A DNA stretch of 64,000 bases, from the IMG/VR virus record IMGVR_UViG_3300020182_000025; one strand, 5' to 3'. Made by a program: the position numbers and the translations under genes. Source of the DNA: a virus. The notes beneath the pieces were generated by a model, which was not told the origin of the DNA, did no database searches, and was given only the letters and a program-made list of their open reading frames with translations. Below, one piece after another: positions 1 through 12,940 of the stretch (its first letter is position 1; each line of letters starts with the position of its first letter).

Positions 1-137
1 GCGATGCTGCCCCACTTCAATCCTGCTATGTGGCGAACCTTAACTTCCTTTGCTGGTACCTTAGTGATACTGCCACCATTCTTTAGGAACTCTTGGAGTA
101 GTTGGTCTGCCATTGCTCTTTGGTTTGCTTTAGTCAT
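1..137 (-). CDS. Small early hypothetical protein, 3' end outside window (MTKANQRAMADQLLQEFLKNGGSITKV...)
   Basis: Manual translation; ATG at 137 follows the conserved early promoter/leader cassette. Confidence 0.7.
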   Translation of the reverse strand, partial: MTKANQRAMADQLLQEFLKNGGSITKVPAKEVKVRHIAGLKWGSI

Positions 138-142
138 GATTT

Positions 143-205
143 TCTCTCTTTTCTGATTTTGTAAGTACATTATACAGGGTTTATTGGAAAAGTCAAGCTT
201 TATTT
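143..205 (-). promoter_or_regulatory. Early sigma70-type promoter/leader cassette, copy 1 of 5
   Basis: Minus strand TTGACT (196-191), 16 bp spacer, TATAAT (174-169), then leader ...caaaatcagaaaagagag. Confidence 0.85.
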
Positions 206-214
206 CAATTTATT

Positions 215-916
215 TTAGATCCCTGCGTAGCCATCGATTACAAAGCCAGACGTATCCTTCTTGGCTGGGCCCTTAGCGGTTAGACCTACTACCACGTTGG
301 CTAGGTCAAGGAAGCGGAGGTCGTCCTTATCACCGTTGATCACCTTACGACCTAGGAAGAATTCTGGGAGCTCCTTGCGGAATACCACTGCTAGGTTGTG
401 CGGGGTACGTGCTGCCTTAGAAGCGTAGGCTAGGTTGGCCTCAGAATATGATACAGTGAGATGGTAATTGGCAGGGACTTTACGGCCAGGGAGCTTGGTG
501 TAATCATAGAATTGGGTATCAGGGAAGGTGTCCATGAGGTTTAGGCCATTTGATCCTTTCTGGTTCTCCCAAGCGATATCGGAAGTGCCGTTCAGACGGA
601 CTGCCAATTCTACACCGTTCTTGGTGGCCTTCTTAATACCCTTGCGGATATCATCTGCCAACTGGTCTACGAAAGCCACTTGGTCATCACGGAATGCGAT
701 TGTCTTATTCATTCGAGCCTTTTGGACATTCGAGAAGGAACCCATGCCAGCTTTATATAGGCAGGCATTCTTACAACCAGCCAGCTCGGCAGTAGGGCAT
801 ACGTTGATACCTTCTACCGTATCAGCTGGAGCCATGTACATGATAGCCGTGAGATATTCACCGCCTTTGTCCGACTTGATTGTTTTAGCGTTTGATCCGA
901 TGCTTAGGTATTTCAT
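215..916 (-). CDS. GP88-family phage protein
   Basis: Motifs CP...GC-x3-CL, AVRLNGTSDIAW, FYDYTK, NYHLTVSYSE and GDKDDLRFLD typical of the gene product 88 family. Confidence 0.75.
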   Translation of the reverse strand: MKYLSIGSNAKTIKSDKGGEYLTAIMYMAPADTVEGINVCPTAELAGCKNACLYKAGMGSFSNVQKARMNKTIAFRDDQVAFVDQLADDIRKGIKKATKNGVELAVRLNGTSDIAWENQKGSNGLNLMDTFPDTQFYDYTKLPGRKVPANYHLTVSYSEANLAYASKAARTPHNLAVVFRKELPEFFLGRKVINGDKDDLRFLDLANVVVGLTAKGPAKKDTSGFVIDGYAGI

Positions 917-923
917 GGTTTTG

Positions 924-986
924 CTCTCTTTTCTCTAGTTTGTAAGTACATTATACAGGGTTTATTCCAAAAGTCAAGCTTTATTT
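924..986 (-). promoter_or_regulatory. Early promoter/leader cassette, copy 2
   Basis: TTGACT (977-972), 16 bp, TATAAT (955-950); near-identical to copy 1. Confidence 0.85.
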
Positions 987-1038
987 CAAAAAAAGATCAA
1001 AAAAAGGTGTTTTTCGTTAAAAATCAAGGGTTTAAAGA

Positions 1039-1063
1039 CAAAAAAAGCCCCAATTAAGGGGCT
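1039..1063 (-). terminator. Intrinsic terminator
   Basis: Minus strand AGCCCC-ttaatt-GGGGCT followed by a T run, downstream of ORF 1146-1496. Confidence 0.75.
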
Positions 1064-1145
1064 AAGATGAGGGCAGGGTAAAAAAGAGAGAGAAAAACCT
1101 GCCCTCGGGTGAGGATAACCAATCCTCTGAGAGTAAACCTATAAT

Positions 1146-1496
1146 TTATGAAATATCGCCGTGATAATCAGTACCAATCTGGACAAACCTCTGGGTTCCT
1201 ATCTGGATTTCCTTCTGCTTACCATTAAAGCCAGCCTTCACCCGAGTGGATAGTTCCATCTTCTCGTACTTGACCACGTTCCGAGCGAGTAGGTCGAATT
1301 TAAGCATGCTATCGGTGGCTAGGATCTTGCCCAGTGTCGTTTCCTTAAAGTTTTCCACTTCCCGGAACACCTGGGTGAGTCTTTCCAGACGAGTATCACT
1401 ACATAGGGAGTGCCTGTCCATGCCCATGGCCTGCTCACGGGCAGATAAGTAGGAACCATTGATGGAGGTAACCGCATTTACTTGGTATATGCTCAT
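1146..1496 (-). CDS. Early hypothetical protein
   Basis: ORF track; TAATG overlap with the upstream small ORF. Confidence 0.6.
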   Translation of the reverse strand: MSIYQVNAVTSINGSYLSAREQAMGMDRHSLCSDTRLERLTQVFREVENFKETTLGKILATDSMLKFDLLARNVVKYEKMELSTRVKAGFNGKQKEIQIGTQRFVQIGTDYHGDIS

Positions 1497-1660
1497 TATT
1501 TGACATCCTTAATTGAGATTGAGTTAATGGTAATGCTATTACCATAAGCGCCATAGACTGCGGCTTCTGCCTCAGCCATGCTATCTGTAAGGACACGGCG
1601 AACGAGGTCCTCTCTGGAGTTATCGTCACCGAATACTGTGAAATTGATTGTGTAAAGCAT
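1496..1660 (-). CDS. Small early hypothetical protein, 54 aa (MLYTINFTVFGDDNSRE...)
   Basis: Manual translation; follows promoter cassette copy 3 with an AAGGA RBS. Confidence 0.7.
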   Translation of the reverse strand: MLYTINFTVFGDDNSREDLVRRVLTDSMAEAEAAVYGAYGNSITINSISIKDVK

Positions 1661-1669
1661 GGTTTTATT

Positions 1670-1730
1670 TCCTTCTCTCAGTTTGTAATTACATTATACA
1701 GGGTCTTTCGGCAAAAGTCAAGCTTTATTT
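1670..1730 (-). promoter_or_regulatory. Early promoter/leader cassette, copy 3
   Basis: TTGACT (1721-1716), 17 bp, TATAAT (1698-1693). Confidence 0.85.
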
Positions 1731-1850
1731 TAGAGCCAAGAATTCGGACTGTGCCGCAGCTTGATCGGCCTGACAGTCGCTACATATAGCATCAATTGGA
1801 GCTTCGACCTGTGTACCGCATTCAGGACATATTACAATTTCATTTTCCAT
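1725..1850 (-). CDS. Small CxxC...CxxC protein, 41 aa (MENEIVICPECGTQVEAPIDAICSDCQ...)
   Basis: Manual translation; two CxxC pairs; follows promoter cassette copy 4. Confidence 0.65.
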   Translation of the reverse strand: MENEIVICPECGTQVEAPIDAICSDCQADQAAAQSEFLALK

Positions 1851-1857
1851 TTTTCTT

Positions 1858-1920
1858 TCTCTCTTTTCTGATTGTGTAAGTACATTATACAGGGTTTATT
1901 CCAAAAGTCAAGCTTTATTT
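1858..1920 (-). promoter_or_regulatory. Early promoter/leader cassette, copy 4
   Basis: TTGACT (1911-1906), 16 bp, TATAAT (1889-1884). Confidence 0.85.
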
Positions 1921-2201
1921 TAACTATTTTGCAAATACTGGTCATTCTTTTTAAGGGACCATTTCTCCATCACTGGCTTGCCAAACTCATCCTCGTCCAC
2001 CGATATATAAGCCACTGTCTTTTTCACTATGGCATACCTATATCCCTGATCCCCACCATGGCCGTAAGAACCAACCCATACTATATGAGGAAACTCACTG
2101 GCAAATTCATGGGTATCAGGATTGACCGAATATTCGAAGTAATTACCATTAGAGTGGACAAAACATCCAATGGGGTTTTGAGTGTGGGTGTGATAAGCCA
2201 T
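1920..2201 (-). CDS. Early hypothetical protein (start revised to MAYHTHTQ)
   Basis: ORF 1920-2330; ATG at 2201 lies just downstream of cassette copy 5 and its RBS. Confidence 0.65.
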   Translation of the reverse strand: MAYHTHTQNPIGCFVHSNGNYFEYSVNPDTHEFASEFPHIVWVGSYGHGGDQGYRYAIVKKTVAYISVDEDEFGKPVMEKWSLKKNDQYLQNS

Positions 2202-2206
2202 ATTTG

Positions 2207-2260
2207 CTCTCTTTTCTGATTGTGTAAGTACATTATACGGGGTGTTTTGGCAAAAGTACA
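2207..2260 (-). promoter_or_regulatory. Early promoter/leader cassette, copy 5 (degenerate -35)
   Basis: TGTACT (2260-2255), 17 bp, TATAAT (2237-2232); same leader as copies 1 and 4. Confidence 0.7.
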
Positions 2261-2317
2261 GTGAATAAAATCGATGATAACACCAACCTTCATCGAAAAA
2301 AACAATGATAAAAAGAC

Positions 2318-2346
2318 TTGACTTCCTCATCTGCCCATGAGATACT
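2318..2346 (+). promoter_or_regulatory. Plus-strand sigma70-like promoter facing the non-coding repeat block
   Basis: TTGACT, 17 bp, GATACT. Confidence 0.5.
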
Positions 2347-2378
2347 ATCCGTCTGCTTTGAGAAAATCAAGCGTTCCT

Positions 2379-2492
2379 AGGTGCTTGATTTCATTAGAGT
2401 TTTTAAGTGCTTGATATGTAAGAGGTTTCTGGCTGCAGCCAAGTCATTGATTCTCTTAGAGTTTTTAAGTGCTTGATTTCATTAGAGTTTGC
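2379..2492. repeat. Four imperfect 26-bp direct repeats, consensus AAGTGCTTGATTTCATTAGAGTTTTT
   Basis: Copies at 2379, 2405, 2441 and 2467; an inverted half-copy AAATCAAGC lies just before copy 1. Confidence 0.85.
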
Positions 2493-2738
2493 CAGGAGCT
2501 CCAGGGCGGAGTCCAGGGCGGAACTTCTGGCGGGTGCCGTTCGGATCAGGCCCTGCCCGGAATCTCTTTTAATGCCTCCAAATTTCGTTTCAACGGTTCT
2601 ATGGTAGACCCCGTGGAACACCCTGGACCCTTGGTCTGTTTACAGTCCATATAGGGCCATTATGGCTTATCTATAGTCCACATAGGGCCATGGACACGGG
2701 TACTGCCTACACGCTACCTATGGGCACCCCTATGCCTA

Positions 2739-2771
2739 GGGTATCCACTGGGTATCCACTGGGTATCCACT
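2739..2771. repeat. Exact tandem repeat (GGGTATCCACT)x3
   Basis: Read directly from the sequence. Confidence 0.9.
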
Positions 2772-2918
2772 GCACCTCAGCGTAGCCTCTATCTGCACCT
2801 GTACATGACCTATTTTTGCATCTGGGGTTGACATTTGGCTGCACATGTGCTACAATATAAATCTGCATCTCGAATAGCTATGGAATCTGCATCTCAACCA
2901 GCATTTCCGTTCGCATCT
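2771..2918. repeat. Phased heptamer array, consensus TGCA(T/C)CT, 7 copies at 23-24 bp spacing
   Basis: Copies start at 2771, 2794, 2817, 2840 (TGCACAT), 2864, 2888 and 2912 (CGCATCT); an off-phase copy at 2949. Confidence 0.8.
2828..2856 (+). promoter_or_regulatory. Near-consensus plus-strand sigma70 promoter with no credible downstream ORF
   Basis: TTGACA, 17 bp, TACAAT, embedded in the heptamer array. Confidence 0.7.
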
Positions 2919-3081
2919 GAGCTTGCCAGGGAAGCCCGGCTGTGGATTTGCATCTGTGGAATTTCGGTGGTATCACTGGTAGTGTGGTTCATGTATAGAA
3001 AGGTGAAATATTGTTTCTCTTTTGCTCTATTATGCGAAATATTGTTTCACTTATAGTACATAAGGCGTATTAATGTTTCGT

Positions 3082-3954
3082 TTATAGATCAGTACCGTTG
3101 AGCACTTTTATCAAGTCAGTGTCAACCTCATCATAGTATATTTTCATTAACAAATCTATTGTTTTTATTCTAGCTAGTTTACATATAATGCGTGGATCTA
3201 TTCCTCTATCTACTAGGTTTTTCACGAACGAGGTACGGAAATTGACCCTAGACAGACCAGCAGAACTCAAGAGATGGGTAATCTTATGCAGTATAGTCTT
3301 TGAGTTAAAAGGACTTCCTTTCTGTGATATAAAAACATAAGACTCTCTGTTGTGTAAAGGGAGTTTACTTCCAAAGAATCTATTAATTTCTTCCTTTAAT
3401 ATTTTTGAGATATAAAGAGGCATTTTGTTTCCTTCGAATTCTATTATATCTTTTGCTTGTCCTTTTTCGTCTAATACATCTCTTACTTTAATTTTCCACA
3501 AGTCTACATAGTTAATGCCAGAGTAATACAAAAAGCATAGTATTAGTCTATTGTTAGACAAGTTTCTTTTCCTTGAAGTGTTTTCTACATGTTCTAATAA
3601 GAGAGCGAATTCTTCCTTTGATATAGTTTTCTTTGGCGGATTAGCTATTACCTTTTTTTGTTTCTTGTTGTAATAGACACCTCCTTTGTGTAGATTATAG
3701 TAAGACTCCCATTTTTCTGGGGTTTTACTGAGTTTACTCAATAGTCTGGCTTCAGTTTCATTGACTTCTTTTTTAGAGCCTTTAAATATTATACGCCTTT
3801 TCATATACGGAGGAACGGAGTCCATATTAAAGGACTCCATTACTTTAGACGAGTGAGCGTAATTATCCTCAACGGATCCTATGTGTTTTCCTAGATATTT
3901 TTTCTTTGTTATTGTGTTAATCCACATATAACAAAACCCTTCATAATTCTTCAT
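3082..3954 (-). CDS. Seg-type GIY-YIG nuclease fused to a degenerate tyrosine-recombinase domain
   Basis: N-term GFCY..YLGKH..Y..SS..E..YYN; C-term NRLILCFLYYSG.N..DL..IKVRDV, YVFISQKG, FRTSF, DPRIICKLA follows the integrase catalytic-domain layout. Confidence 0.7.
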   Translation of the reverse strand: MKNYEGFCYMWINTITKKKYLGKHIGSVEDNYAHSSKVMESFNMDSVPPYMKRRIIFKGSKKEVNETEARLLSKLSKTPEKWESYYNLHKGGVYYNKKQKKVIANPPKKTISKEEFALLLEHVENTSRKRNLSNNRLILCFLYYSGINYVDLWKIKVRDVLDEKGQAKDIIEFEGNKMPLYISKILKEEINRFFGSKLPLHNRESYVFISQKGSPFNSKTILHKITHLLSSAGLSRVNFRTSFVKNLVDRGIDPRIICKLARIKTIDLLMKIYYDEVDTDLIKVLNGTDL

Positions 3955-4274
3955 ACTGTAAAACTCACTCCACAGCCACAGGTGCCTACTGCGTTTGGGT
4001 TCTTTAGTTGGAAGGTTGATCCCATTATATCTTCTACATAATCTAACGTGCTTCCTACTACATAAGAATAGGATAGGCTATCTACTAGGACTAGGTTGTC
4101 TATTACGGTATCATCGTCTGTTTTTTCTTCTATTGAGAATCCGTATTGGAAGCCTGAGCAGCCTCCTCCATGTACATAGACTCTTAATAGTTTGTCGCCT
4201 TCCTTGAGTGTTGTTGCTTTACTCTTGGCTGATTCTGTTAGGATTAATGCTTGTGGTGTCCATGATTCTATCAT
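3951..4274 (-). CDS. erpA: A-type Fe-S carrier (ErpA/IscA, HesB family)
   Basis: LRVYVHGGGCSGFQYGF and NPNAVGTCGCGVSF signatures. Confidence 0.9.
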   Translation of the reverse strand: MIESWTPQALILTESAKSKATTLKEGDKLLRVYVHGGGCSGFQYGFSIEEKTDDDTVIDNLVLVDSLSYSYVVGSTLDYVEDIMGSTFQLKNPNAVGTCGCGVSFTV

Positions 4275-4306
4275 AAAATTCCTCTGCTATTACTGAGCAG
4301 TGTATG

Positions 4307-4987
4307 CTATTTCCAGTTGACTGTATCTATTATCTCTTGGTAATTTAACATGTATTTATCTGCCCGATGTGAGCTTATTGTAGATGTGTCAAGTTTTTTG
4401 TTTGGTAGTTCGATGCCTATTTTTTCTTCTAGTATTTCCCATGTATCTTCTACGAATATTGTTTTAGGTACATCTCCTGTGAGTTTTATTACTCTTTCAA
4501 TAAAAAGATTTTCTAATATGTGTGTATGTTTGAGGAGCGTTTTCACTACGTCTATGTCTGCATTGAATGCTTTGAAGGAAGGATCTACTGGGTGTGAAGG
4601 ATCAAATGATTTTGTTTTCCATCCCATGATAATAGAGAAAGCAATGTCTATCTTCTTTCTTCTTGTTGAGAGGATAAAAGTCCAGTCATTGCTGTCTGTC
4701 GGTAATAAAGTCGGGTTGTGACTGTGACATACAATAGGTGTCTTCCATGTATCCATCAAAGTTATGGCATCATCGTCCGTGTAGCCTTTTGATTGTGATC
4801 CTTTACCTTTTACTTCGGTTATAACTTGGAAGCCGTCTAGTAAATTTCTACTTGGACTTGGAGTAAGGTCAGACTTGATAGGATGTATATACATTTTCTG
4901 GTTGCTTGATGCCTGGGCGTCTTGTATACCATTCATTATTCTTTTGCTGCCTGTCCTGCCCATAGGTGAGCAAACATAATATTTCAT
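4307..4987 (-). CDS. Sulfotransferase-like protein (start revised to MKYYVCSPMGRTGS)
   Basis: N-terminal GRTGS PAPS-binding-loop-like motif, R-R-K..D...S, C-terminal NYQEI; paralog of 32559-33227. Confidence 0.55.
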   Translation of the reverse strand: MKYYVCSPMGRTGSKRIMNGIQDAQASSNQKMYIHPIKSDLTPSPSRNLLDGFQVITEVKGKGSQSKGYTDDDAITLMDTWKTPIVCHSHNPTLLPTDSNDWTFILSTRRKKIDIAFSIIMGWKTKSFDPSHPVDPSFKAFNADIDVVKTLLKHTHILENLFIERVIKLTGDVPKTIFVEDTWEILEEKIGIELPNKKLDTSTISSHRADKYMLNYQEIIDTVNWK

Positions 4988-5364
4988 TGCTGCTTGTCTT
5001 GATAGTCCTTTACTGCTGCCTTGATAGCGTCTTCTGCTAATACTGAACAATGTATCTTTACTGGAGGTAGTGCTAGTTCTTCTGCTAGGTCTACGTTCTT
5101 TATGTCCTTTGCTTCGTCTAGTGATAGTCCTTTGACCCATTCCGTGAGAAGGCTTGATGATGCGATTGCTGACCCACACCCGTAGGTTTTGAACTTAGCG
5201 TCCGTGATGATATTGTTCTCGTCTACTTCAATTTGTAAACGCATGACATCACCACAAGCGGGTGCTCCTACCATGCCTGTGCCGATGTTCTTTTGTTTAG
5301 GATCGAATATACCTACATTGCGTGGATTTTCATAATGATCGAGTACTTTGTCTGAGTATGCCAT
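4984..5364 (-). CDS. iscU: Fe-S scaffold protein IscU
   Basis: YSDKVLDHYENPRNVG, GAPACGDVM, FKTYGCGSAIASSS, LPPVKIHCSVLAEDAI. Confidence 0.95.
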   Translation of the reverse strand: MAYSDKVLDHYENPRNVGIFDPKQKNIGTGMVGAPACGDVMRLQIEVDENNIITDAKFKTYGCGSAIASSSLLTEWVKGLSLDEAKDIKNVDLAEELALPPVKIHCSVLAEDAIKAAVKDYQDKQQ

Positions 5365-5368
5365 TGTG

Positions 5369-5572
5369 TTAGTCCTCTACAACGAGTGTGCGTGAAATTT
5401 CGCCTTTGAACAGGCAGTATTTGTATTTCTTGTTGCCTTTCTTTGTGATGAGAAGCCAGCCGTTGAAGTCGATGACCTTCTCTTCGCCCTTTCTTTCTAT
5501 GTCTACTTTTAACTGCTTGAGGGTACTGTAACAGACAAAGAAATATTTACTACCGATGTATGTTTTTTTCAT
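5369..5572 (-). CDS. Hypothetical protein
   Basis: ORF track; tightly packed in operon. Confidence 0.6.
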   Translation of the reverse strand: MKKTYIGSKYFFVCYSTLKQLKVDIERKGEEKVIDFNGWLLITKKGNKKYKYCLFKGEISRTLVVED

Positions 5573-5979
5573 AGTTTACCTTCTTTTCTTAACTGTTCTC
5601 TAATCTGTGTTGCACTAATATTATGTATCTCTTCACCTAAGTCATGCTGCGTAAACGTATATCCCACACCACGACCATAACTGATGTCTACAATGTTTGG
5701 AACTTCCATTATAATATAGTCTTCGTTATATGTAAAGCCTTCTTTTGCCAAACCCCTAATAATATTTTCTTTTGCTGTTAGGAAGTCAAAAGGATTGTCA
5801 TCTTGTGCAACTGTACGTCCACCGCCTGCATCTTGTCCAACAATACCTCCAACGTCACGTACCATAATAGCAACTTGCCCGGTTTCGGCAAATACTTTTT
5901 TAAACAGTGCAGTGTGGCCATCGTGCCAAGGTTGCCAACGGCCTAACATCTGTGTAGTAGGCTTTTGATAATCAAACAT
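5569..5979 (-). CDS. Small HxGH-family nucleotidyltransferase (start revised to MFDYQKP)
   Basis: LGRWQPWHDGH motif; YGRGVGY. Confidence 0.7.
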   Translation of the reverse strand: MFDYQKPTTQMLGRWQPWHDGHTALFKKVFAETGQVAIMVRDVGGIVGQDAGGGRTVAQDDNPFDFLTAKENIIRGLAKEGFTYNEDYIIMEVPNIVDISYGRGVGYTFTQHDLGEEIHNISATQIREQLRKEGKL

Positions 5980-6187
5980 TTTTAACTCCGTATCGAATAT
6001 ATTTGTACCATAGCCGTTCGTGTCCGTAGTATAATACAAATTTAATAATTAAGTCGGCAACAAACACTGCGCCAACAGCTTTAGGCGGAAGCCCAAAGTA
6101 CCAAGCAATTAATGCAGTAACAATACTTGCTACAATTCGCCAAGTAACTGCTTTTGCTAAATGGCGTTTTTTACTTACTGTTTCCAT
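5972..6187 (-). CDS. DUF2061-like membrane protein
   Basis: RHLAKAVTWRI...LYYGHERLW pattern. Confidence 0.75.
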   Translation of the reverse strand: METVSKKRHLAKAVTWRIVASIVTALIAWYFGLPPKAVGAVFVADLIIKFVLYYGHERLWYKYIRYGVKNV

Positions 6188-6602
6188 TGCGTTTCGTATA
6201 AGAAGTTACAACTTTTAAAAGTTGTGTATGTGTATCGTTAAACCACTGTGCAACATGATAGTCGTACTTAGTAGGCGCTTGGAAAATTTTGTTAGTATCA
6301 TCAAAACGTCCCTCTTTAATAGTATCCATCCAGACTGTAAAATCTGGATCAAATTCTAAACGTGCGGCTTCTGTAGGACAAACAAAGTCTGCTACTGCAA
6401 TTTTGCCTGCCATAACAACACCGTCACTTAGATGACGCATGCGTTGTGCTTGACGTATACGTCCTTCAGGTGTAAAATCCCAGTCATCATATTCTTTGCG
6501 AACTGCGTCAGCATTAATATGCACTCCACCTAGTAACTCTGCAAACGGTTTTGCTAGAGTAGTTTTACCACTACCTGGTAAACCAAATATTAAAATTTTC
6601 AC
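6171..6602 (-). CDS. Adenylylsulfate (APS) kinase-like P-loop kinase
   Basis: GLPGSGKTTLA, NADAVR, DFTPEGRIRQAQRM, ADFVCP. Confidence 0.8.
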   Translation of the reverse strand: MKILIFGLPGSGKTTLAKPFAELLGGVHINADAVRKEYDDWDFTPEGRIRQAQRMRHLSDGVVMAGKIAVADFVCPTEAARLEFDPDFTVWMDTIKEGRFDDTNKIFQAPTKYDYHVAQWFNDTHTQLLKVVTSYTKRNGNSK

Positions 6603-6605
6603 AAT

Positions 6606-7406
6606 TTACTTTCCTTTACTACTCTCTATCCCATAAATGTATTGATGCTCTATAATCTTATTTATGTCTGGGTCGATGATTTTACCTAAAGGTATGTGAC
6701 CCAGTGCGAGTCTTTTGTCTCCTATAGGATAGGGCAGTTTATGTTCTATCTGCTTCAGCCAATTGTCGATGTAGAATTTTAATTGAGGTTCTTTACCTGC
6801 CCATCTGTCTTCGTCTAAATGAAACAGCAAATCTGGCCTTACAATGCTTGTAGGAAGAATGTGATGTTCAGGAACTTCTGTGTCGTTGTCTTGCACAATT
6901 TCTGTAATGTTTTTACCCACATGAGGATAATTCATGTACACAGTGTTTTCTCTTTTGCCAAGAGTAAACAGGTCGTAGTCTTCGTCTTGTAGAGGTTCTG
7001 CTTGAATGTTGCTACAGAATAGAAACTGTCTCTTACCACCATCCCGCATTCTCTCTAGGTGGTGCAAGTGATAATTAAACATCGCTAGCCAGTGTTTTGT
7101 TTCTGAATCCGTTTCTATGTGTACTAGATCAGGAAAGTTCTCATGTAACCGATTTAGATCAAAATCGTGCTTAAATGTCTCAGGTTTTAATCTTTTTAGA
7201 TGATTTATGGCGGTATTTAAATCGTTTTCGACATCTTTTTGACTCTCCCCAAATTCATAAAACTCTGTGCGTGATACAAAGTCTATATCGTCAGCATCTC
7301 GTATCATTTCCCATATACGATTTGCTACTCTGTTGTCAAAGAGTTCTATAGTAAGAGAATAATCTTTATTGTGTCCTAAGTGTACTACTATTTCTCTCTT
7401 GTCCAT
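6606..7406 (-). CDS. Hypothetical protein
   Basis: ORF track, 266 aa. Confidence 0.6.
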   Translation of the reverse strand: MDKREIVVHLGHNKDYSLTIELFDNRVANRIWEMIRDADDIDFVSRTEFYEFGESQKDVENDLNTAINHLKRLKPETFKHDFDLNRLHENFPDLVHIETDSETKHWLAMFNYHLHHLERMRDGGKRQFLFCSNIQAEPLQDEDYDLFTLGKRENTVYMNYPHVGKNITEIVQDNDTEVPEHHILPTSIVRPDLLFHLDEDRWAGKEPQLKFYIDNWLKQIEHKLPYPIGDKRLALGHIPLGKIIDPDINKIIEHQYIYGIESSKGK

Positions 7407-7939
7407 ATACTAAGTTCACCTATTTCAACATCTTGTGGCATTTCTAGTGTCCAGATAACCGCATCTGCTATAGCTTCTGTTGTAAGCATAACTTTATCTA
7501 AGTTTTTTGTTAGGTTGGTATCAACAAAGCCAGGATTTATTGTAATAAGTCTACACTTTTTGTTTGAATAGAATTGAAATCCTTTAATAATCTCGTCCAT
7601 TATTCTTTTGTCTAGTGTGTACTGCACCATGTTTGGTGTTAATTGCGACTGGCCTGTTGGGAAATACTTTGCTTTGCTTCCTATTGTTACAATCGTCTTT
7701 GTTGGATCTTCTGCCCATTCTGCAAACATTTTTTGTAACAAAGTTGTCTGTGCGGCAGGAGCATATGCATTGTTGATAAACACATCTGCTAGTTTTGCTT
7801 GTTCTACGATTATATCTGGATCATTTATATCGTCACCAGTTTCTATGTCAAAGCCCATTACAGTGTGGCCTTTTTCAGAAGCTGCATTCGTTATCGCTTC
7901 GCCAATTCCGTTTGCATGGCCTGTAATTGCTATTAACAT
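7388..7939 (-). CDS. Short-chain dehydrogenase/reductase
   Basis: ITGHANGIG, FINNA, Y-x3-K (YTLDK), INPGFVDT. Confidence 0.8.
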   Translation of the reverse strand: MLIAITGHANGIGEAITNAASEKGHTVMGFDIETGDDINDPDIIVEQAKLADVFINNAYAPAAQTTLLQKMFAEWAEDPTKTIVTIGSKAKYFPTGQSQLTPNMVQYTLDKRIMDEIIKGFQFYSNKKCRLITINPGFVDTNLTKNLDKVMLTTEAIADAVIWTLEMPQDVEIGELSIWTREK

Positions 7940-8550
7940 AAGTTGTCCAATCTTCTGTTGAGTTCTTCCCACGAAATATGAGGAAAGAATGTTGCTGATA
8001 ATGTCAAGCGTTCTTCTGTTGCTTTTGTCATATCAACTGAGTGAGGAATGTCTGTTCTAACAAACGCTGACTTCATATTTATATCTCTTGAGTATACTTT
8101 ATGCTGTGTATCTATCACCGAATATCCCGCAGGTGTGTTCTTTTCTTTTGAACGATTGTTATCAAGTTCAAGTTTAACATGAGTCAACACAGGTCCCACA
8201 CGCCACCAGTTCAGTGTGCTGTTATCACCGCTTGCATAATAAGCTAGTCGCCACGAGTAGGTTGTGTCTGGCTCGCCGTCAATGTGAGGTCGACACTGAG
8301 TACCTGCTTCTCCTGTGAATGCCGTGATTGATGCTACTTCCAAATCAAGTAGCTTGGCGAGACGTATCATGTTTTTAGTGAAATCAGTTCGGAGGATTCT
8401 TTTGTCCTTTATCGCATGATGCGTCAAAGGAGCATTTTTTGTATGCTCGACAGATTCACTGAAAACTTTAATATCTTTTTCAGTGAGAGGATATAAAAAA
8501 TTTTCTCGTATATAGTTATTCACTTTTTTTCCAGCAGCTCCATGCCACAT
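7933..8550 (-). CDS. Cupin/2OG-Fe(II)-like protein (likely GTG start at 8523)
   Basis: PHIDG...PHSV H-x-D...H triad, C-terminal RLTLS. Confidence 0.45.
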   Translation of the reverse strand: MWHGAAGKKVNNYIRENFLYPLTEKDIKVFSESVEHTKNAPLTHHAIKDKRILRTDFTKNMIRLAKLLDLEVASITAFTGEAGTQCRPHIDGEPDTTYSWRLAYYASGDNSTLNWWRVGPVLTHVKLELDNNRSKEKNTPAGYSVIDTQHKVYSRDINMKSAFVRTDIPHSVDMTKATEERLTLSATFFPHISWEELNRRLDNLC

Positions 8551-9100
8551 TTAAAAATTGCTGTGACCAATAAGATGCAGGTACAATATCGTTCTCGAAT
8601 GCTTCAAGGTCTGCTGCTACATTTTCACACCACTCCCATATCTGATCACGCATAAAAATACTGTGATATTCACGGTCAGGAGCATAGTCGTGTGTCATTA
8701 TGAAATCGTTTTCTTTCAAAAAAGGTGCATACAAGTTAAACTCTTTAATCTTGTCGCCGCCATCTACTAACAAGAGAGTCTTGCCGCCGTTAGCAATGCC
8801 TTCTACAATCTCATCATACCCCTCGCCATCCCATGCTGATTTGTTTCTGAAATCGAACGGAGGTTCCTTGCGTAGTTTGTTCTCAACGTCATATGTCCAG
8901 AATCTAAATCCATGTAGTTGAGACAGGTCATATATGTAGTGAGAGAAGCCGCCCTCGCTGGTTCCTATTTCTATTACTGTGTCAAAAGTTTGTGCTTGAA
9001 AGAAAGGAGGGAAGTAATCAAAAATATTGATGTTCTGTTGAGCAGGCCATCCATGGTAAATAAAACGGCCATGCCTGGAACAAGTGTATTCAAAACTCAC
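8516..9100 (-). CDS. Class I SAM methyltransferase (CmcI/Methyltransf_24-like)
   Basis: VIEIGTSEGGF, LLVDGG, IMTHDY. Confidence 0.7.
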   Translation of the reverse strand: MSFEYTCSRHGRFIYHGWPAQQNINIFDYFPPFFQAQTFDTVIEIGTSEGGFSHYIYDLSQLHGFRFWTYDVENKLRKEPPFDFRNKSAWDGEGYDEIVEGIANGGKTLLLVDGGDKIKEFNLYAPFLKENDFIMTHDYAPDREYHSIFMRDQIWEWCENVAADLEAFENDIVPASYWSQQFLNVAWSCWKKSE

Positions 9101-9101
9101 A

Positions 9102-9362
9102 TTATTCTCCTAGAATAATTTGAATATGCTCTTCTTCAATAGCAAGTAGATTGTTGCCAATGTCTTGCGCTTTAGTCCAATCTGCGACAATACGATTATC
9201 AATTTCAACATCTTTCACATCAGGACCAATGCCCATGACTATACCAATCGCTGAATCTAGTTTAGTAGAGTCTTGTAGAATGATGCCGCCTTCGGTGACA
9301 CTATCTCGCTTCTCAAATCCAAATACTACCACACCACGGGTAGGTCGCATCATTGTACTCAT
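9102..9362 (-). CDS. groES: GroES-like co-chaperonin
   Basis: RP...TEGGIIL...GIVMGIGPDV pattern. Confidence 0.75.
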   Translation of the reverse strand: MSTMMRPTRGVVVFGFEKRDSVTEGGIILQDSTKLDSAIGIVMGIGPDVKDVEIDNRIVADWTKAQDIGNNLLAIEEEHIQIILGE

Positions 9363-9364
9363 AT

Positions 9365-9571
9365 TTAGTCCTGTTTTAATATTTCAAATTGAGTTTCAGT
9401 TATCTTTATTTTCAATACACCTTTACTGTTGGCGTTTTCTTCTAAGTATGATAAGAAATGCATGACCCCATCTCTTTTACCAATGGAATGTGACATATAA
9501 CCACAACCAATCATTAGAAAAAGTGAAACAGCGTAATAAATTTCTTTATGATATATAGATACCATATCCAT
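9365..9571 (-). CDS. Small membrane protein
   Basis: ORF track; one hydrophobic segment. Confidence 0.55.
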   Translation of the reverse strand: MDMVSIYHKEIYYAVSLFLMIGCGYMSHSIGKRDGVMHFLSYLEENANSKGVLKIKITETQFEILKQD

Positions 9572-9681
9572 TATTTTTCTTCCTTCTTATTAGTTTCTTT
9601 ACATTTGCCGCAATTTGTGCCAATAAGATGATAGCGATCCTTGTCGCTTTCTTTGACAGCGTTGCATATACACAGGTACAT
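9571..9681 (-). CDS. Minimal Bfd-like [2Fe-2S] protein, 36 aa (MYLCICNAVKESDKDRYHLIGTNCGKCKETNKKEEK)
   Basis: Manual translation, below the ORF-track cutoff; C-x-C...C-G-K-C like Bfd; TAATG coupling at both ends. Confidence 0.7.
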   Translation of the reverse strand: MYLCICNAVKESDKDRYHLIGTNCGKCKETNKKEEK

Positions 9682-9971
9682 TATTCTTCCTTAATGAATA
9701 TTCCGTCTACCATCTTGCCTTTGCGATCTGCAATATCGCTGTATGCTTGTTGTAGGCATTCTGTGAGGCTCAATTTATTTCGTTCTGCGATATTGATCAG
9801 CACCACTACAATGTCACCGATATCGTCACTGACATCTTTGCCCTTACACACATTGTCAGAAAGTTCGCCTACTTCTTGAATGAGCTTGCACACCTGATCT
9901 TTGTCATTAGCGCCGTCAATCAGATTTCGATCATAATGCCACTGTTTGATCTTCTCAACAAGGGTGACCAT
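9681..9971 (-). CDS. mazG: MazG-like NTP pyrophosphohydrolase
   Basis: KLIQEVGEL...DDIGDIVVVLINIA. Confidence 0.85.
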   Translation of the reverse strand: MVTLVEKIKQWHYDRNLIDGANDKDQVCKLIQEVGELSDNVCKGKDVSDDIGDIVVVLINIAERNKLSLTECLQQAYSDIADRKGKMVDGIFIKEE

Positions 9972-9981
9972 ATATGTGGTT

Positions 9982-10098
9982 TCAATCGTTTGCCGCTGCA
10001 TTTGCTTTATCCTGTATTTGTTGTATCAATTTCACCAAATCTCTTAACTCTTCGGCGTCTCGTTCTGTGTCAATTTCTATCTGAATATTTATTAGCAT
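9982..10098 (-). CDS. Small hypothetical protein, 38 aa (MLINIQIEIDTERDAEE...)
   Basis: Manual translation; fills the gap between flanking genes, AGGA RBS. Confidence 0.5.
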   Translation of the reverse strand: MLINIQIEIDTERDAEELRDLVKLIQQIQDKANAAAND

Positions 10099-10105
10099 AT
10101 TATTC

Positions 10106-10711
10106 CTATGGCCAGACAGGCTTGCCTCGTAGTATTAACCCATAAAGTTCTTCCCAGTTCTTTACTTTTCTTGCTTTACCCTTGTACTTCATGTTATGAG
10201 CATGTTCCATTAAATATGTATCAAAGCCTAGACTTGCACCCATATCTGCATTTTCAATCTTATCTTCAATCCAGACCGCACTAGGATACTTCACTGATGC
10301 AAAGGCCAGCGCCTCGGCTTTGTCTGCGCCACACTCCAAACAGATAACTTCCTTGAATGTGTTTGGTCCAAATATCTTATTCAGGTTTCGTTCACGAAGG
10401 AGTTTAGCATAAGGATCTAAACTTAGGCTAGTAATCGCCACGAAACAATACTGCTTCTTTTCGTGGAGCTTCTTGATGTAGTACTGAGCATCACGCAACG
10501 GCGGCAAGAAACCAATCGCTGCTGATTCGTTGAAGGTCTTGATTAACCGCTTCACTGTGTCGGGTGCTATTTGATAAGCGATTGCCATTGAGTAGACATC
10601 TTTCGAGTCTATGTAATGTCCCTGCATCTCCATCCACTGATGAAATGCAAATTCCCAATCCAAGCAGACACCGTCAATGTCAGTTAGGATTATGTTTTCT
10701 TTAAACATCAT
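10106..10711 (-). CDS. HAD-family 5'-nucleotidase-like protein (T4 gp30.2-like)
   Basis: ILTDIDGVCLDW, WIEDK, HAHN. Confidence 0.75.
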   Translation of the reverse strand: MMFKENIILTDIDGVCLDWEFAFHQWMEMQGHYIDSKDVYSMAIAYQIAPDTVKRLIKTFNESAAIGFLPPLRDAQYYIKKLHEKKQYCFVAITSLSLDPYAKLLRERNLNKIFGPNTFKEVICLECGADKAEALAFASVKYPSAVWIEDKIENADMGASLGFDTYLMEHAHNMKYKGKARKVKNWEELYGLILRGKPVWP

Positions 10712-11274
10712 TTTCTTTTTTTCTCCTTCTTTATTTGAGCTTCACACACTTTGTTTAGAAACAATACTTCTGCGTTCCAGTCCATTTGTTTCATTGTTCT
10801 TGGACTCAGGTCTTTTGCTTGTTTAAGTGTGAAGCCCATTTCGTTTTTAATAAAATCTTTTGCTAATTCGTGTTGACCATTCCATGCCTCAATTTCCCAT
10901 GGCTGCTTTCTGTATGCCACATCAGTAAAGTCCTCGCCGTGCCACAGGTCTTTTCTATTAACAGTCTTTAGTTCACCAGTAACAAACTGTTTCATGTGAA
11001 TTGATTCGTGAGCTAGAAAACTGATATAATCATAAAGAGTGCCACGACTGTGAGATTCAATGAGAACCTCATTGCGGCCCATGTGTTCACACAAACCAGC
11101 AACATCGTCTTTGATAAGATTTTTTATCTGCAAGTCAATGCTGAGACTGCGCTTGCGAGGCATCAACACCTTGACGAAATATCGAAGGGCGCCTTCACCT
11201 AAGTCACGTTGCTTTGCTGTACCACCTTCAATACTAATTTTAATCATTCTAGTTCCTTTTCTCATTTTATACAT
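10708..11274 (-). CDS. HExxH zincin-like protein
   Basis: AHESIHMKQ...QPWEIEA. Confidence 0.6.
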   Translation of the reverse strand: MYKMRKGTRMIKISIEGGTAKQRDLGEGALRYFVKVLMPRKRSLSIDLQIKNLIKDDVAGLCEHMGRNEVLIESHSRGTLYDYISFLAHESIHMKQFVTGELKTVNRKDLWHGEDFTDVAYRKQPWEIEAWNGQHELAKDFIKNEMGFTLKQAKDLSPRTMKQMDWNAEVLFLNKVCEAQIKKEKKRK

Positions 11275-11276
11275 AT

Positions 11277-11305
11277 ATTATACTACAGGAAGCAGCAAAT
11301 GTCAA
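11277..11305 (-). promoter_or_regulatory. Early sigma70-type promoter
   Basis: TTGACA, 17 bp, TATAAT, followed by AAAATGAGAAAA leader. Confidence 0.8.
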
Positions 11306-11358
11306 ATTCGTAAGTCTTTGATTTAATTCAGGATTTAAAATTAGTTTTGTCAATGATA

Positions 11359-11505
11359 TCAGTCACTTACAGAGACGAGCTGTCTCTCTAGGTCGGCACA
11401 GTAGCGTTCGGTCGCTTCAATATCCCAGTCGCTACCAGTTGTGTAGTAGTTCTCCAGCTCATTTTCGGCTGAATTGAGCAGTTCCATCAGTGTTTCTTTG
11501 TTCAT
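11359..11505 (-). CDS. Small acidic early protein, 48 aa (MNKETLMELLNSAENE...)
   Basis: Manual translation; AAGGAG RBS; promoter TTGACA-17-CATAAT at 11564-11536. Confidence 0.65.
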   Translation of the reverse strand: MNKETLMELLNSAENELENYYTTGSDWDIEATERYCADLERQLVSVSD

Positions 11506-11566
11506 TTACTTGACTCCTTTATTAATTTATAGTACATTATGACATGTATTAAGGTAATTGTCAAGT

Positions 11567-11574
11567 TATAAATA
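11567..11574 (+). promoter_or_regulatory. T4-type late promoter TATAAATA
   Basis: Exact match 26 bp upstream of the plus-strand gene at 11601. Confidence 0.75.
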
Positions 11575-11600
11575 GTAAAATACTTTACCGGAGAGACACA

Positions 11601-12422
11601 ATGGGTGCCAATACCAAAGCATTCGATGACGAAAATAGAGCTTTCAAGTTGTTACAAGCACGACTGGGAAAAACTCACGCTGCATTTGCCAAGCCAATGG
11701 GAGCAGATGCTGGCTTTCCAGACTTTGGTTTCACGATAAACCTCGATAACAAAACTGCGATAGATGTCCATATAGAGTACAAAAATTCACATACCGCTCA
11801 AATGGGTAGTATGAGGGACTGGCGGTTTGATGGCAGCAAATTTTACACACCAGACAAAAAATCTGAAGCCAAGCAAGAACTTATATCTTTGATGAACGAC
11901 ACAGCCGAAGCTGGTCAGAATGGTAAAAGATTACTAAAAGATTTCAAAAAATATTTTCACCCTAAAATATCTGAAATATACAGTGGAATGTTGAGCATTG
12001 TTCCAGACAAGTTTGCCAGAAGACCATTGACAGAAAATTTTGCAAATAACACAAAAAATTATAGCATAGCAAACATATCTAGCAATACATTGGGCAATAA
12101 AATATTGACACACTATAAAAACAAGTTTACAAAAAATCTAAGAACTGGTGTGAGAAAAAATGTTCTAGCTATGATGATAGGTAAAGAAATGTGGATAGTA
12201 GACTCTAAAGGTGTGACTAAAGACGAGCTTAAAAAGATTGCTACAATTTTTGGATCAAGCAGAGAATTTAATAAGTTAAGCAATCTCACTGCTAAGTTAG
12301 AAGTTAGAATACAGCCAAGAGGTCTAAACTCTCCTGGATCTAATCCTAAGCCTACTACAATTGATGTCATGGCCAGTTATAGGCTGCAAGGAAAACCAAA
12401 TCAAGGCACAGTTATAATATAA
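11601..12422 (+). CDS. Putative PD-(D/E)xK nuclease-fold protein
   Basis: GADAGFPDF...DVHIEYKN motif. Confidence 0.5.
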   Translation: MGANTKAFDDENRAFKLLQARLGKTHAAFAKPMGADAGFPDFGFTINLDNKTAIDVHIEYKNSHTAQMGSMRDWRFDGSKFYTPDKKSEAKQELISLMNDTAEAGQNGKRLLKDFKKYFHPKISEIYSGMLSIVPDKFARRPLTENFANNTKNYSIANISSNTLGNKILTHYKNKFTKNLRTGVRKNVLAMMIGKEMWIVDSKGVTKDELKKIATIFGSSREFNKLSNLTAKLEVRIQPRGLNSPGSNPKPTTIDVMASYRLQGKPNQGTVII

Positions 12423-12940
12423 TGACTTCATTATTTTTTCTTTTCCAACACAAAAATACTCTGTATATCGTAGACGAGAAAAAGATACAGGATGTACCAA
12501 AGCCTCGTGAGCTGATTAGGAGATTATCTACCATTGAGCAGATTCGAGAGATAGCTGATTCTATGAATATGGAAATAGCTGGCGACTTTGCTCGTGCTAG
12601 AACTCGTAAGCACACAGAAGAAGGTCGTCAGCGTATCGCCGAAGCTAAAATGGGTGACAAACACCCTGCTGTACAGAATGGTAGATCACAAGACTTCCGT
12701 GACAAAGTATCTAAGACTATGACAGGTACTAGGCGTGGCGAAAACAATCCTATGCACGGTCACAAGCATCGAAACTCTACACGGCAGAAGATATCAGAGG
12801 CAAGACGCAAGCGTGGCAAATACAAATGGATATGTGGGCCTGAAGGAGCTACTACTATACCAGAGTATGAACCTATTCCTGAAGGCTGGGTCGCTGGTAA
12901 GATATATGATCCCTACAAGCCCACCGATTTAAACGACTGA
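12422..12940 (+). CDS. NUMOD3-repeat DNA-binding protein with no evident nuclease domain
   Basis: KHTEEGRQRIAEAKMG, ENNPMHGHKHRNSTRQKISE, C-terminal W..PEGW..GK. Confidence 0.65.
   Translation: MTSLFFLFQHKNTLYIVDEKKIQDVPKPRELIRRLSTIEQIREIADSMNMEIAGDFARARTRKHTEEGRQRIAEAKMGDKHPAVQNGRSQDFRDKVSKTMTGTRRGENNPMHGHKHRNSTRQKISEARRKRGKYKWICGPEGATTIPEYEPIPEGWVAGKIYDPYKPTDLND

Follow-up and report, generated by a model that had tools for sequence, protein, structure and literature searches.

What could a phage protein be doing that joins a GIY-YIG nuclease to a tyrosine recombinase apparently deprived of its active site? This question is raised by a gene on the minus strand of a 64,000-nucleotide stretch of viral DNA (IMG/VR record IMGVR_UViG_3300020182_000025), the whole of which is called the window hereafter. 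We consider that its product is probably a homing endonuclease of the free-standing kind, with a SegE-type GIY-YIG nuclease and, for reading DNA, a catalytically dead tyrosine-recombinase domain exapted to this role. The nuclease activity, the binding of DNA by the C-terminal domain and the location of the target are points that we infer. The gene and its parts are as follows.

3082-3954, minus strand: the complete reading frame (290 aa and a stop codon), free-standing and located after an Fe-S carrier (HesB/ErpA-like) gene, with intact fused homologues in other assemblies
3951-3954, minus strand: upstream junction, an ATGA overlap (junction sequence)
3679-3954, minus strand: residues 1-92, SegE-type GIY-YIG nuclease domain (family-profile hhalign, Pfam, AF2 model)
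3625-3678, minus strand: residues 93-110, a Lys-rich linker, predicted to be flexible (low pLDDT)
3085-3624, minus strand: residues 111-290, tyrosine-recombinase catalytic fold with a degenerate active site (Pfam, PHROG, phmmer, Foldseek, ESM Atlas)
3082-3092, minus strand: downstream junction, the last two codons and stop, TGATCTATAA on the coding strand (blastn, junction sequences)

The gene consists of a single open reading frame, which contains no start codon upstream of its ATG. This ATG and the TGA stop of the Fe-S carrier gene before it overlap, so that a promoter of its own is unnecessary for the fusion gene. The same ATGA overlap exists in the related contig L004, while in L001 and L112 the two genes are separated instead by a spacer of 16-17 nt. 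A NifU/IscU gene is located further upstream, beyond the Fe-S carrier gene. On the other side, the original prediction had the gene ending beside a non-coding block, and about 750 bp without any credible gene (3081-2331) indeed adjoin its end; in related contigs, about 900-1100 bp without a called gene are found at the equivalent place after the fusion gene. The kilobase containing the fusion gene is, with 33% G+C, the minimum of the window, most of which is at 37-43%. The phage itself is T4-like, encoding a gp43-type DNA polymerase, a gp41-type helicase, a gp46-like SbcC protein and a ribonucleotide reductase. No Rfam family was found in positions 1-12000 and no tRNA gene in the window. Neither megablast of the 4 kb around the gene nor tblastn of the 290-aa protein gave a match in 50,697 deposited phage genomes.

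The union of the two halves had been predicted to be a true gene fusion, and it is not the product of a frameshift or of an assembly join, the same fused ORF being found in independent assemblies. Its own 90%-identity cluster includes 8 sequences and 16 contigs. Fused relatives from other samples share 74-88% identity with it, and additional clusters are found at 44%, 43% and 33%. Both domains are under purifying selection, both halves being maintained: dN/dS values, calculated according to Nei-Gojobori on three genomic copies, are 0.19-0.24 for the N-terminal domain and 0.29-0.35 for the C-terminal one. Selection on the latter fits a new, non-catalytic use.

The Seg-type GIY-YIG motif set that had been read in the N-terminal part (GFCY, YLG, Y.HSS, E68 and YYN) is present in full, and corresponds to conserved columns in a family of more than 100 cluster representatives. 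The domain is made of strands 6-13, 18-25 and 51-59 and helices 61-76 and 79-82, and its key residues are Y9, Y20, G22, H24, D30, Y32, H34, S35, S36, R53, E68 and N87. In the alignment of 100 relatives, Y9, Y20, G22, E68 and N87 are invariant in all sequences, R53 is kept in 98 of them, and H24, D30, Y32, S35 and S36 are nearly invariant. Y9 and Y20-L-G22 constitute the GIY/YIG strand signature, i.e. two Tyr 10-11 residues apart, the second one followed by x-Gly. E68 and N87 align to the E and YYN of SegE, their counterparts in I-TevI being E75 and N90.

Searched alone against Pfam, NCBIfam, PHROG and PDB sequences, the window protein gave no significant match for this domain, the best one in Pfam being SegE_GIY-YIG with a weak E-value of 0.49. 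Consequently, the assignment relies on the family profile and on the structural model. An exhaustive HMMER search collected 413 cluster representatives, most of which match residues 1-95 only and display varied C-termini. Pfam GIY-YIG (PF01541) is matched by 32 of 100 family members (best E 0.0013) and SegE_GIY-YIG by 27 of them (best E 5.8e-7). With hhalign, the family profile aligns to residues 3-88 of T4 SegE with a probability of 95.3% (E 2.3e-8, 84 columns); this SegE sequence was taken from the T4 record, whose annotation calls it a site-specific homing endonuclease. The same comparison with T4 SegG was weak and partial, and the family profile run against PDB sequences returned chance matches to sulfatases only.

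A separate AF2 model of residues 1-100 (pLDDT 90) displays the three-stranded sheet and flanking helices of the GIY-YIG fold. The catalytic domain of I-TevI is its top match, with modest scores, both in Foldseek (probability 0.93, E 0.11) and in VIA (Z 6.3 over 77 residues), and is followed in these two independent searches by PD-T4-3, UvrC-N, EndoII and Slx1. In the hhalign alignment to I-TevI, a 10-residue gap is situated where the Arg27 helix lies, and this helix is absent in the family. A layout without it is common to SegE, and R53 of the family aligns with an Arg of SegE. This suggests that activity of the domain would depend on R53 standing in for Arg27, in line with the sequence of SegE. 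The domain family is represented in 66 viral contigs with many different C-termini, and some of its members belong to PHROG 'homing endonuclease' families. Neither this family nor fused relatives were found in the scanned prokaryote (GTDB) species genomes.

The absence of the canonical Arg helix and the weak direct Pfam matches of the window protein, together with the stable position of the gene in its lineage, could also be understood if this were a decaying or repurposed homing gene, in which the nuclease is dead and whose product is kept only for binding DNA, for instance in repression or exclusion. We regard this as unlikely, since all residues of the SegE-type set are invariant or nearly invariant, the N-terminal domain exhibits the lowest dN/dS of the gene, and the recent horizontal spread described below fits an active element.

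For the C-terminal half, the tyrosine-recombinase fold that had been proposed from its layout is recovered by Pfam, phmmer and the AF2 model searched with Foldseek. Pfam Phage_integrase (PF00589) covers residues 110-274 (E 3.3e-10, profile positions 2-166 of 172), with a score of 40.4 bits for a gathering cut-off of 27.1. PHROG integrase families match this domain, and NCBIfam Xer models match it far below their equivalog cut-offs (53 bits vs 220). The archaeal XerA 4a8e was found by phmmer (E 1.4e-6), and XerA 5hxy by Foldseek against PDB (E 9e-8), along with XerH, the Tn1549 integrase and Cre. A 188-aa 'site-specific integrase' model of the ESM Atlas superimposes with a TM of 0.82 and an rmsd of 1.9 over 169 residues. 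The core-binding (SAM-like) domain is absent, the N-terminus being the GIY-YIG domain, and no SAM-like family matched. Short stand-alone relatives of the C-terminal domain are also devoid of it. The closest of them, about 190 aa long, are tyrosine recombinases whose active site is intact. One stand-alone relative, P0061 (L037-L039; gene at L037:2309-2893), is carried by plasmid-like contigs, between replication and NikA-like genes and an R.HinP1I-type restriction-modification pair.

The AF2 model of the whole protein, built with 75 sequences, has a mean pLDDT of 91.6. In spite of this value, its pTM is only 0.66 and the relative placement of the two domains is thus not fixed. Linker residues 93-110 have a pLDDT of 47-72, falling below 50 at residues 95-99. 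As modelled, low linker confidence and low pTM fit two domains held on a flexible tether.

Active tyrosine recombinases require the set R-K-H-R-(H/W)-Y. The state of these six positions was read from the XerA alignment and from an alignment with ten stand-alone relatives of about 190 aa.

Arg I: N148 in the window protein; N, K, G or T in fused relatives
Lys: E174 in the window protein; E, K, G or S in fused relatives
His II: V237 in the window protein; V, I or G in fused relatives, H in P0013
Arg II: R240 in the window protein; kept in all fused relatives
His III: I263 in the window protein; I, V, F or M in fused relatives, H in P0013
Tyr: Y273 in the window protein; kept in all fused relatives

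Four of the six positions are replaced, only Arg II and Tyr being left. The losses at Arg I, His II and His III and the surviving Tyr had all been read correctly in the original prediction, which moreover considered the Lys-bearing segment to be deleted. This last point was half right: compared with the stand-alone relatives, the beta2-beta3 hairpin is short by 6 residues, but it is not wholly deleted and E174 occupies the Lys position. A Lys, K177, is present two residues past the canonical position. Among the ten stand-alone relatives aligned, eight keep R, H-x-x-R, H and Y, whereas P0100 and P0156 are degenerate.

Active-site loss is common to all fused relatives, and the replacement residues differ between them. 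The most distant fused form, P0013 (33% identity), still retains H-x-x-R, His III and Tyr, i.e. four of the six residues, and the other fused forms retain two. Decay after fusion is therefore visible. Such a pattern would be expected if catalysis had been given up after the fusion, with the positions drifting afterwards.

The invariance of R240 and Y273 leaves some room for residual chemistry in the C-terminal domain. These residues could have been kept because the domain grips or attacks one scissile phosphate, in which case a double-strand break would result from two chemistries per monomer: one strand would be hydrolysed by the GIY-YIG domain, and the second would undergo a step that is tyrosine-mediated or phosphate-anchored. 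This would be a new solution to the single-active-site problem of monomeric GIY-YIG enzymes. With Arg I, Lys and both His lost, we give it very little credit.

The presence or absence of the gene is ORF-sized, and its history is discordant with that of its flanks. In seven close-relative contigs it is found at the same place, with the Fe-S carrier gene before it and about 0.9-1.1 kb of gene-free DNA after it. It is missing from four IMG/VR contigs in which the Fe-S carrier protein is 83-86% identical. One of these provides an empty site: in L012, as aligned by blastn, the equivalent of window position 3951 is joined directly to that of 3091, the insert being the size of the ORF. The L012 junction reads TGA/TCTATAAAC directly after the stop of the Fe-S carrier gene, which identifies the last two codons and the stop of the fusion gene as pre-existing flank. 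TGA is thus found on both sides of an insert of about 860 bp (six filled sites and one empty site were compared). The NifU and Fe-S carrier proteins of L012 are 94% and 85% identical to those of the window, so this phage is as close to it as gene-carrying relatives, or closer. In principle, the L012 site could be explained instead by a deletion between the two TGA triplets.

An insert exactly of the size of the ORF with TGA on both sides, added to R240 and Y273 being invariant in every fused form, brings to mind another possibility, namely that the C-terminal domain is still active as a non-canonical recombinase or nicking enzyme acting through these two residues, and that the gene inserts and excises at the TGA repeat. 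This is highly improbable in our view. Arg I, Lys, His II and His III are replaced, and differently in each relative, indicating relaxed constraint at these positions; the core-binding domain is missing; and the 3-bp repeat is, to our knowledge, far shorter than the crossover cores of tyrosine recombinases.

In L013, which has no fusion gene, the same spot is occupied by two unrelated genes, and in L010 and L011 by a NUMOD3 gene cassette on the other strand. The two L013 genes (L013:5297-6531) code for proteins of 254 aa and 152 aa, the former having at its N-terminus a GDS(F) motif that by eye is GDSL/SGNH-like.

The history of the gene was compared with that of its flanks in three genomes only. 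When the window is compared with L004, the fusion gene has a dS of 0.20 and the Fe-S carrier gene next to it one of 1.64. Nucleotide identity starts at 0.72-0.80 within the carrier gene, reaches about 0.92 within tens of bp of the start codon, and is 0.71-0.75 past the stop, then about 0.55 farther downstream. As the other genes shared by these two phages are 71-83% identical, the fusion gene, at about 92%, is the outlier. The situation is reversed between L004 and L001, where flanks are at about 0.9, the gene at 0.8-0.9 and its last 250 bp at 0.6-0.7. Likewise, between L001:8600-8870 and window 3085-3355, identity drops from about 0.85-0.9 to 0.6-0.7 over the last 250-270 bp, and the dS of L001 doubles in the 3' end of the gene, against both other copies. 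This divergent part corresponds to residues about 201-290, including the Arg II and Tyr helices. It suggests that the 3' end of the gene is mosaic in L001, where part of the candidate DNA-reading domain may have been exchanged.

Every copy of the close lineage is at the same locus, and no mobility between sites was seen there. More distant fused relatives are found elsewhere, P0010 (44%) beside a T4-type RNase H and a NUMOD3 gene, and P0013 beside a tail gene. The designation of 'homing nuclease' given in the original prediction is supported by the ORF-sized empty site and by the conflict between the histories of gene and flanks.

The same prediction pointed to the non-coding block as a natural target. 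These approximately 750 bp are full of short repeat families, but they are not inherited together with the gene. A window-type block is present in L013, which does not have the fusion gene; the 92%-identical gene copy of L004 is placed beside a block only about 55% identical; L012 is devoid of the gene and of most of the block; and P0010 and P0013, in their other contexts, have no such block. The block is therefore unlikely to be the dedicated target of the fusion protein, and the repeat elements belong to the host phage, untied to the fusion gene.

These observations also bear on whether the protein could be a domesticated nuclease or DNA-binding factor, beneficial to the phage and acting on the adjacent block, for instance as an origin, a packaging site or a regulatory region; this corresponds to the 'processing nuclease' of the original prediction. 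Several facts could be taken this way: the seven close contigs examined all have a long gene-free stretch next to the gene, two long contigs terminate in the gene region or close to it, and both domains are under purifying selection. I-TevI, too, is known to double as a repressor (PMC10448857). All the same, we find this explanation improbable, given a block without the gene in L013, nearly the same gene beside a very different block in L004, the loss of both gene and most of the block in L012, which is an equally close relative, and the distant fused forms without any such block.

Directly after the gene, in 3003-3078 (minus strand), we observed a GNGARAC-N4-TTTC motif at a spacing of 31 bp, with clear copies at 3003-3019 and 3034-3050 and a weaker third one, the copies being followed by CTAGACATGAA or TATACATGAA. 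This pair of 17-bp motifs (3003-3050) is unique in the window. It is also present at L012:5340-5410, at L013:6540-6590 and in L043, and is conserved at the start of the non-coding block whatever the upstream gene. Motif copies of one phage are more alike than copies across phages. The pair looks like a candidate paired binding site for a phage-specific protein. Its use as an immunity mark, differing between phages with and without the gene in the manner of a mutated target site, was also considered, the first five genomes fitting a division into gene-carrying and gene-less types. It was ruled out by L112 and L113, which carry the gene with the 'gene-less' motif type, and by the presence of the pair after an unrelated HIT-family gene in L043.

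Other variable genes and repeated elements were noticed in these genomes. A 165-aa NUMOD3 protein is 89% identical in two unrelated contexts (L010:5318-7095 and L005:6874-8291): in L010 it is encoded at the hot spot that follows the Fe-S carrier gene, and in L005-L007 beside the 44% fused relative. Its gene follows a different larger gene each time (426 or 307 aa), and the window itself contains a 44-46% homologue at 12434-12928 (plus strand). This gene set looks like a second mobile nuclease-associated cassette. Between the NifU and Fe-S carrier genes, the window contains another gene of 290 aa (4307-5179, minus strand), which is absent in L003 and L004, where NifU and Fe-S carrier genes abut. 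In L001 this slot is occupied by a different gene, of 189 aa, and a homologue of the 4307-5179 gene (about 74% nucleotide identity) is located about 2.5 kb upstream. The NifU/Fe-S carrier interval is hence a second variable slot in the same small operon. Finally, the window contains, at 2203-2257, 1852-1924, 1663-1731, 925-986 and 140-205, repeated copies of an intergenic element about 60-90 bp long. It precedes several small minus-strand genes, and copies about 80-87% identical are present in L001, L004, L007 and L013. On the coding strand it displays TATAAT, then a ribosome-binding-like AGAGAGAAA, and is probably a repeated early-promoter cassette.

How would a homing endonuclease of this kind work? 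In the mechanism that we propose, the SegE-type GIY-YIG domain would be the nuclease, and a flexible linker some 18 residues long would tether it to the non-catalytic recombinase domain. The latter would most likely serve as a sequence-reading anchor, in the role that NUMOD3 and helix-turn-helix modules have in I-TevI and other Seg proteins. During mixed infection, a related phage without the gene would have its allele cut by the protein close to where the Fe-S carrier gene meets the non-coding DNA, and repair from the gene-carrying genome would copy the gene in.

The fusion shares features with T4 SegE and the other free-standing Seg proteins: a homologous N-terminal nuclease domain with the same motif set, an intergenic gene present or absent among related T4-like phages, and a layout of nuclease, linker and binding module. 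It differs from them by its C-terminal module, a tyrosine-recombinase catalytic fold in place of the usual small DNA-binding modules, and its N-terminal domain family is only 29% identical to SegE. I-TevI (PDB 1ln0, 1mk0) is the best structural match and has the same design of catalytic domain, flexible linker and DNA-binding domain. On the other hand, I-TevI possesses the Arg27 helix missing in the fusion family, is intron-encoded, and binds DNA via a zinc finger, a minor-groove helix and a helix-turn-helix. As to XerA, XerH, XerD and the catalytic-domain-only integrases of about 190 aa, they have the same fold and recognisable sequence similarity, while the fusion protein has four of six catalytic positions replaced, no core-binding domain and a shorter beta2-beta3 hairpin.

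By language-model features, the nearest proteins are two ESM Atlas clusters (0.95 and 0.90) combining Pfam GIY-YIG and, in part, Phage_integrase. Their members are longer (368 aa, Actinomycetota, and 509 aa) and of the canonical PF01541 type, and the integrase family is found in only 21% and 57% of them. No sequence-level relation between these two clusters and the fusion family was detected, and we take them as a lead. In view of them, the combination of GIY-YIG and integrase domains is probably not unique as such. In the literature library that was searched, we found no description of a fusion between GIY-YIG and tyrosine-recombinase domains, nor of an inactive recombinase domain used for binding.

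Homing endonucleases are known to swap small DNA-binding modules. If the proposed reading is true, an enzyme fold for cutting and rejoining DNA would have been retained here for its grip on DNA alone, and intermediates in the decay of its active site would be extant, P0013 with four of six residues and the other forms with two. Designers of engineered nucleases would also gain in this domain a new and large scaffold for sequence reading. Moreover, uncultured T4-like phages would provide here a clean natural case in which a boundary of genetic exchange between them is marked by a nuclease gene.
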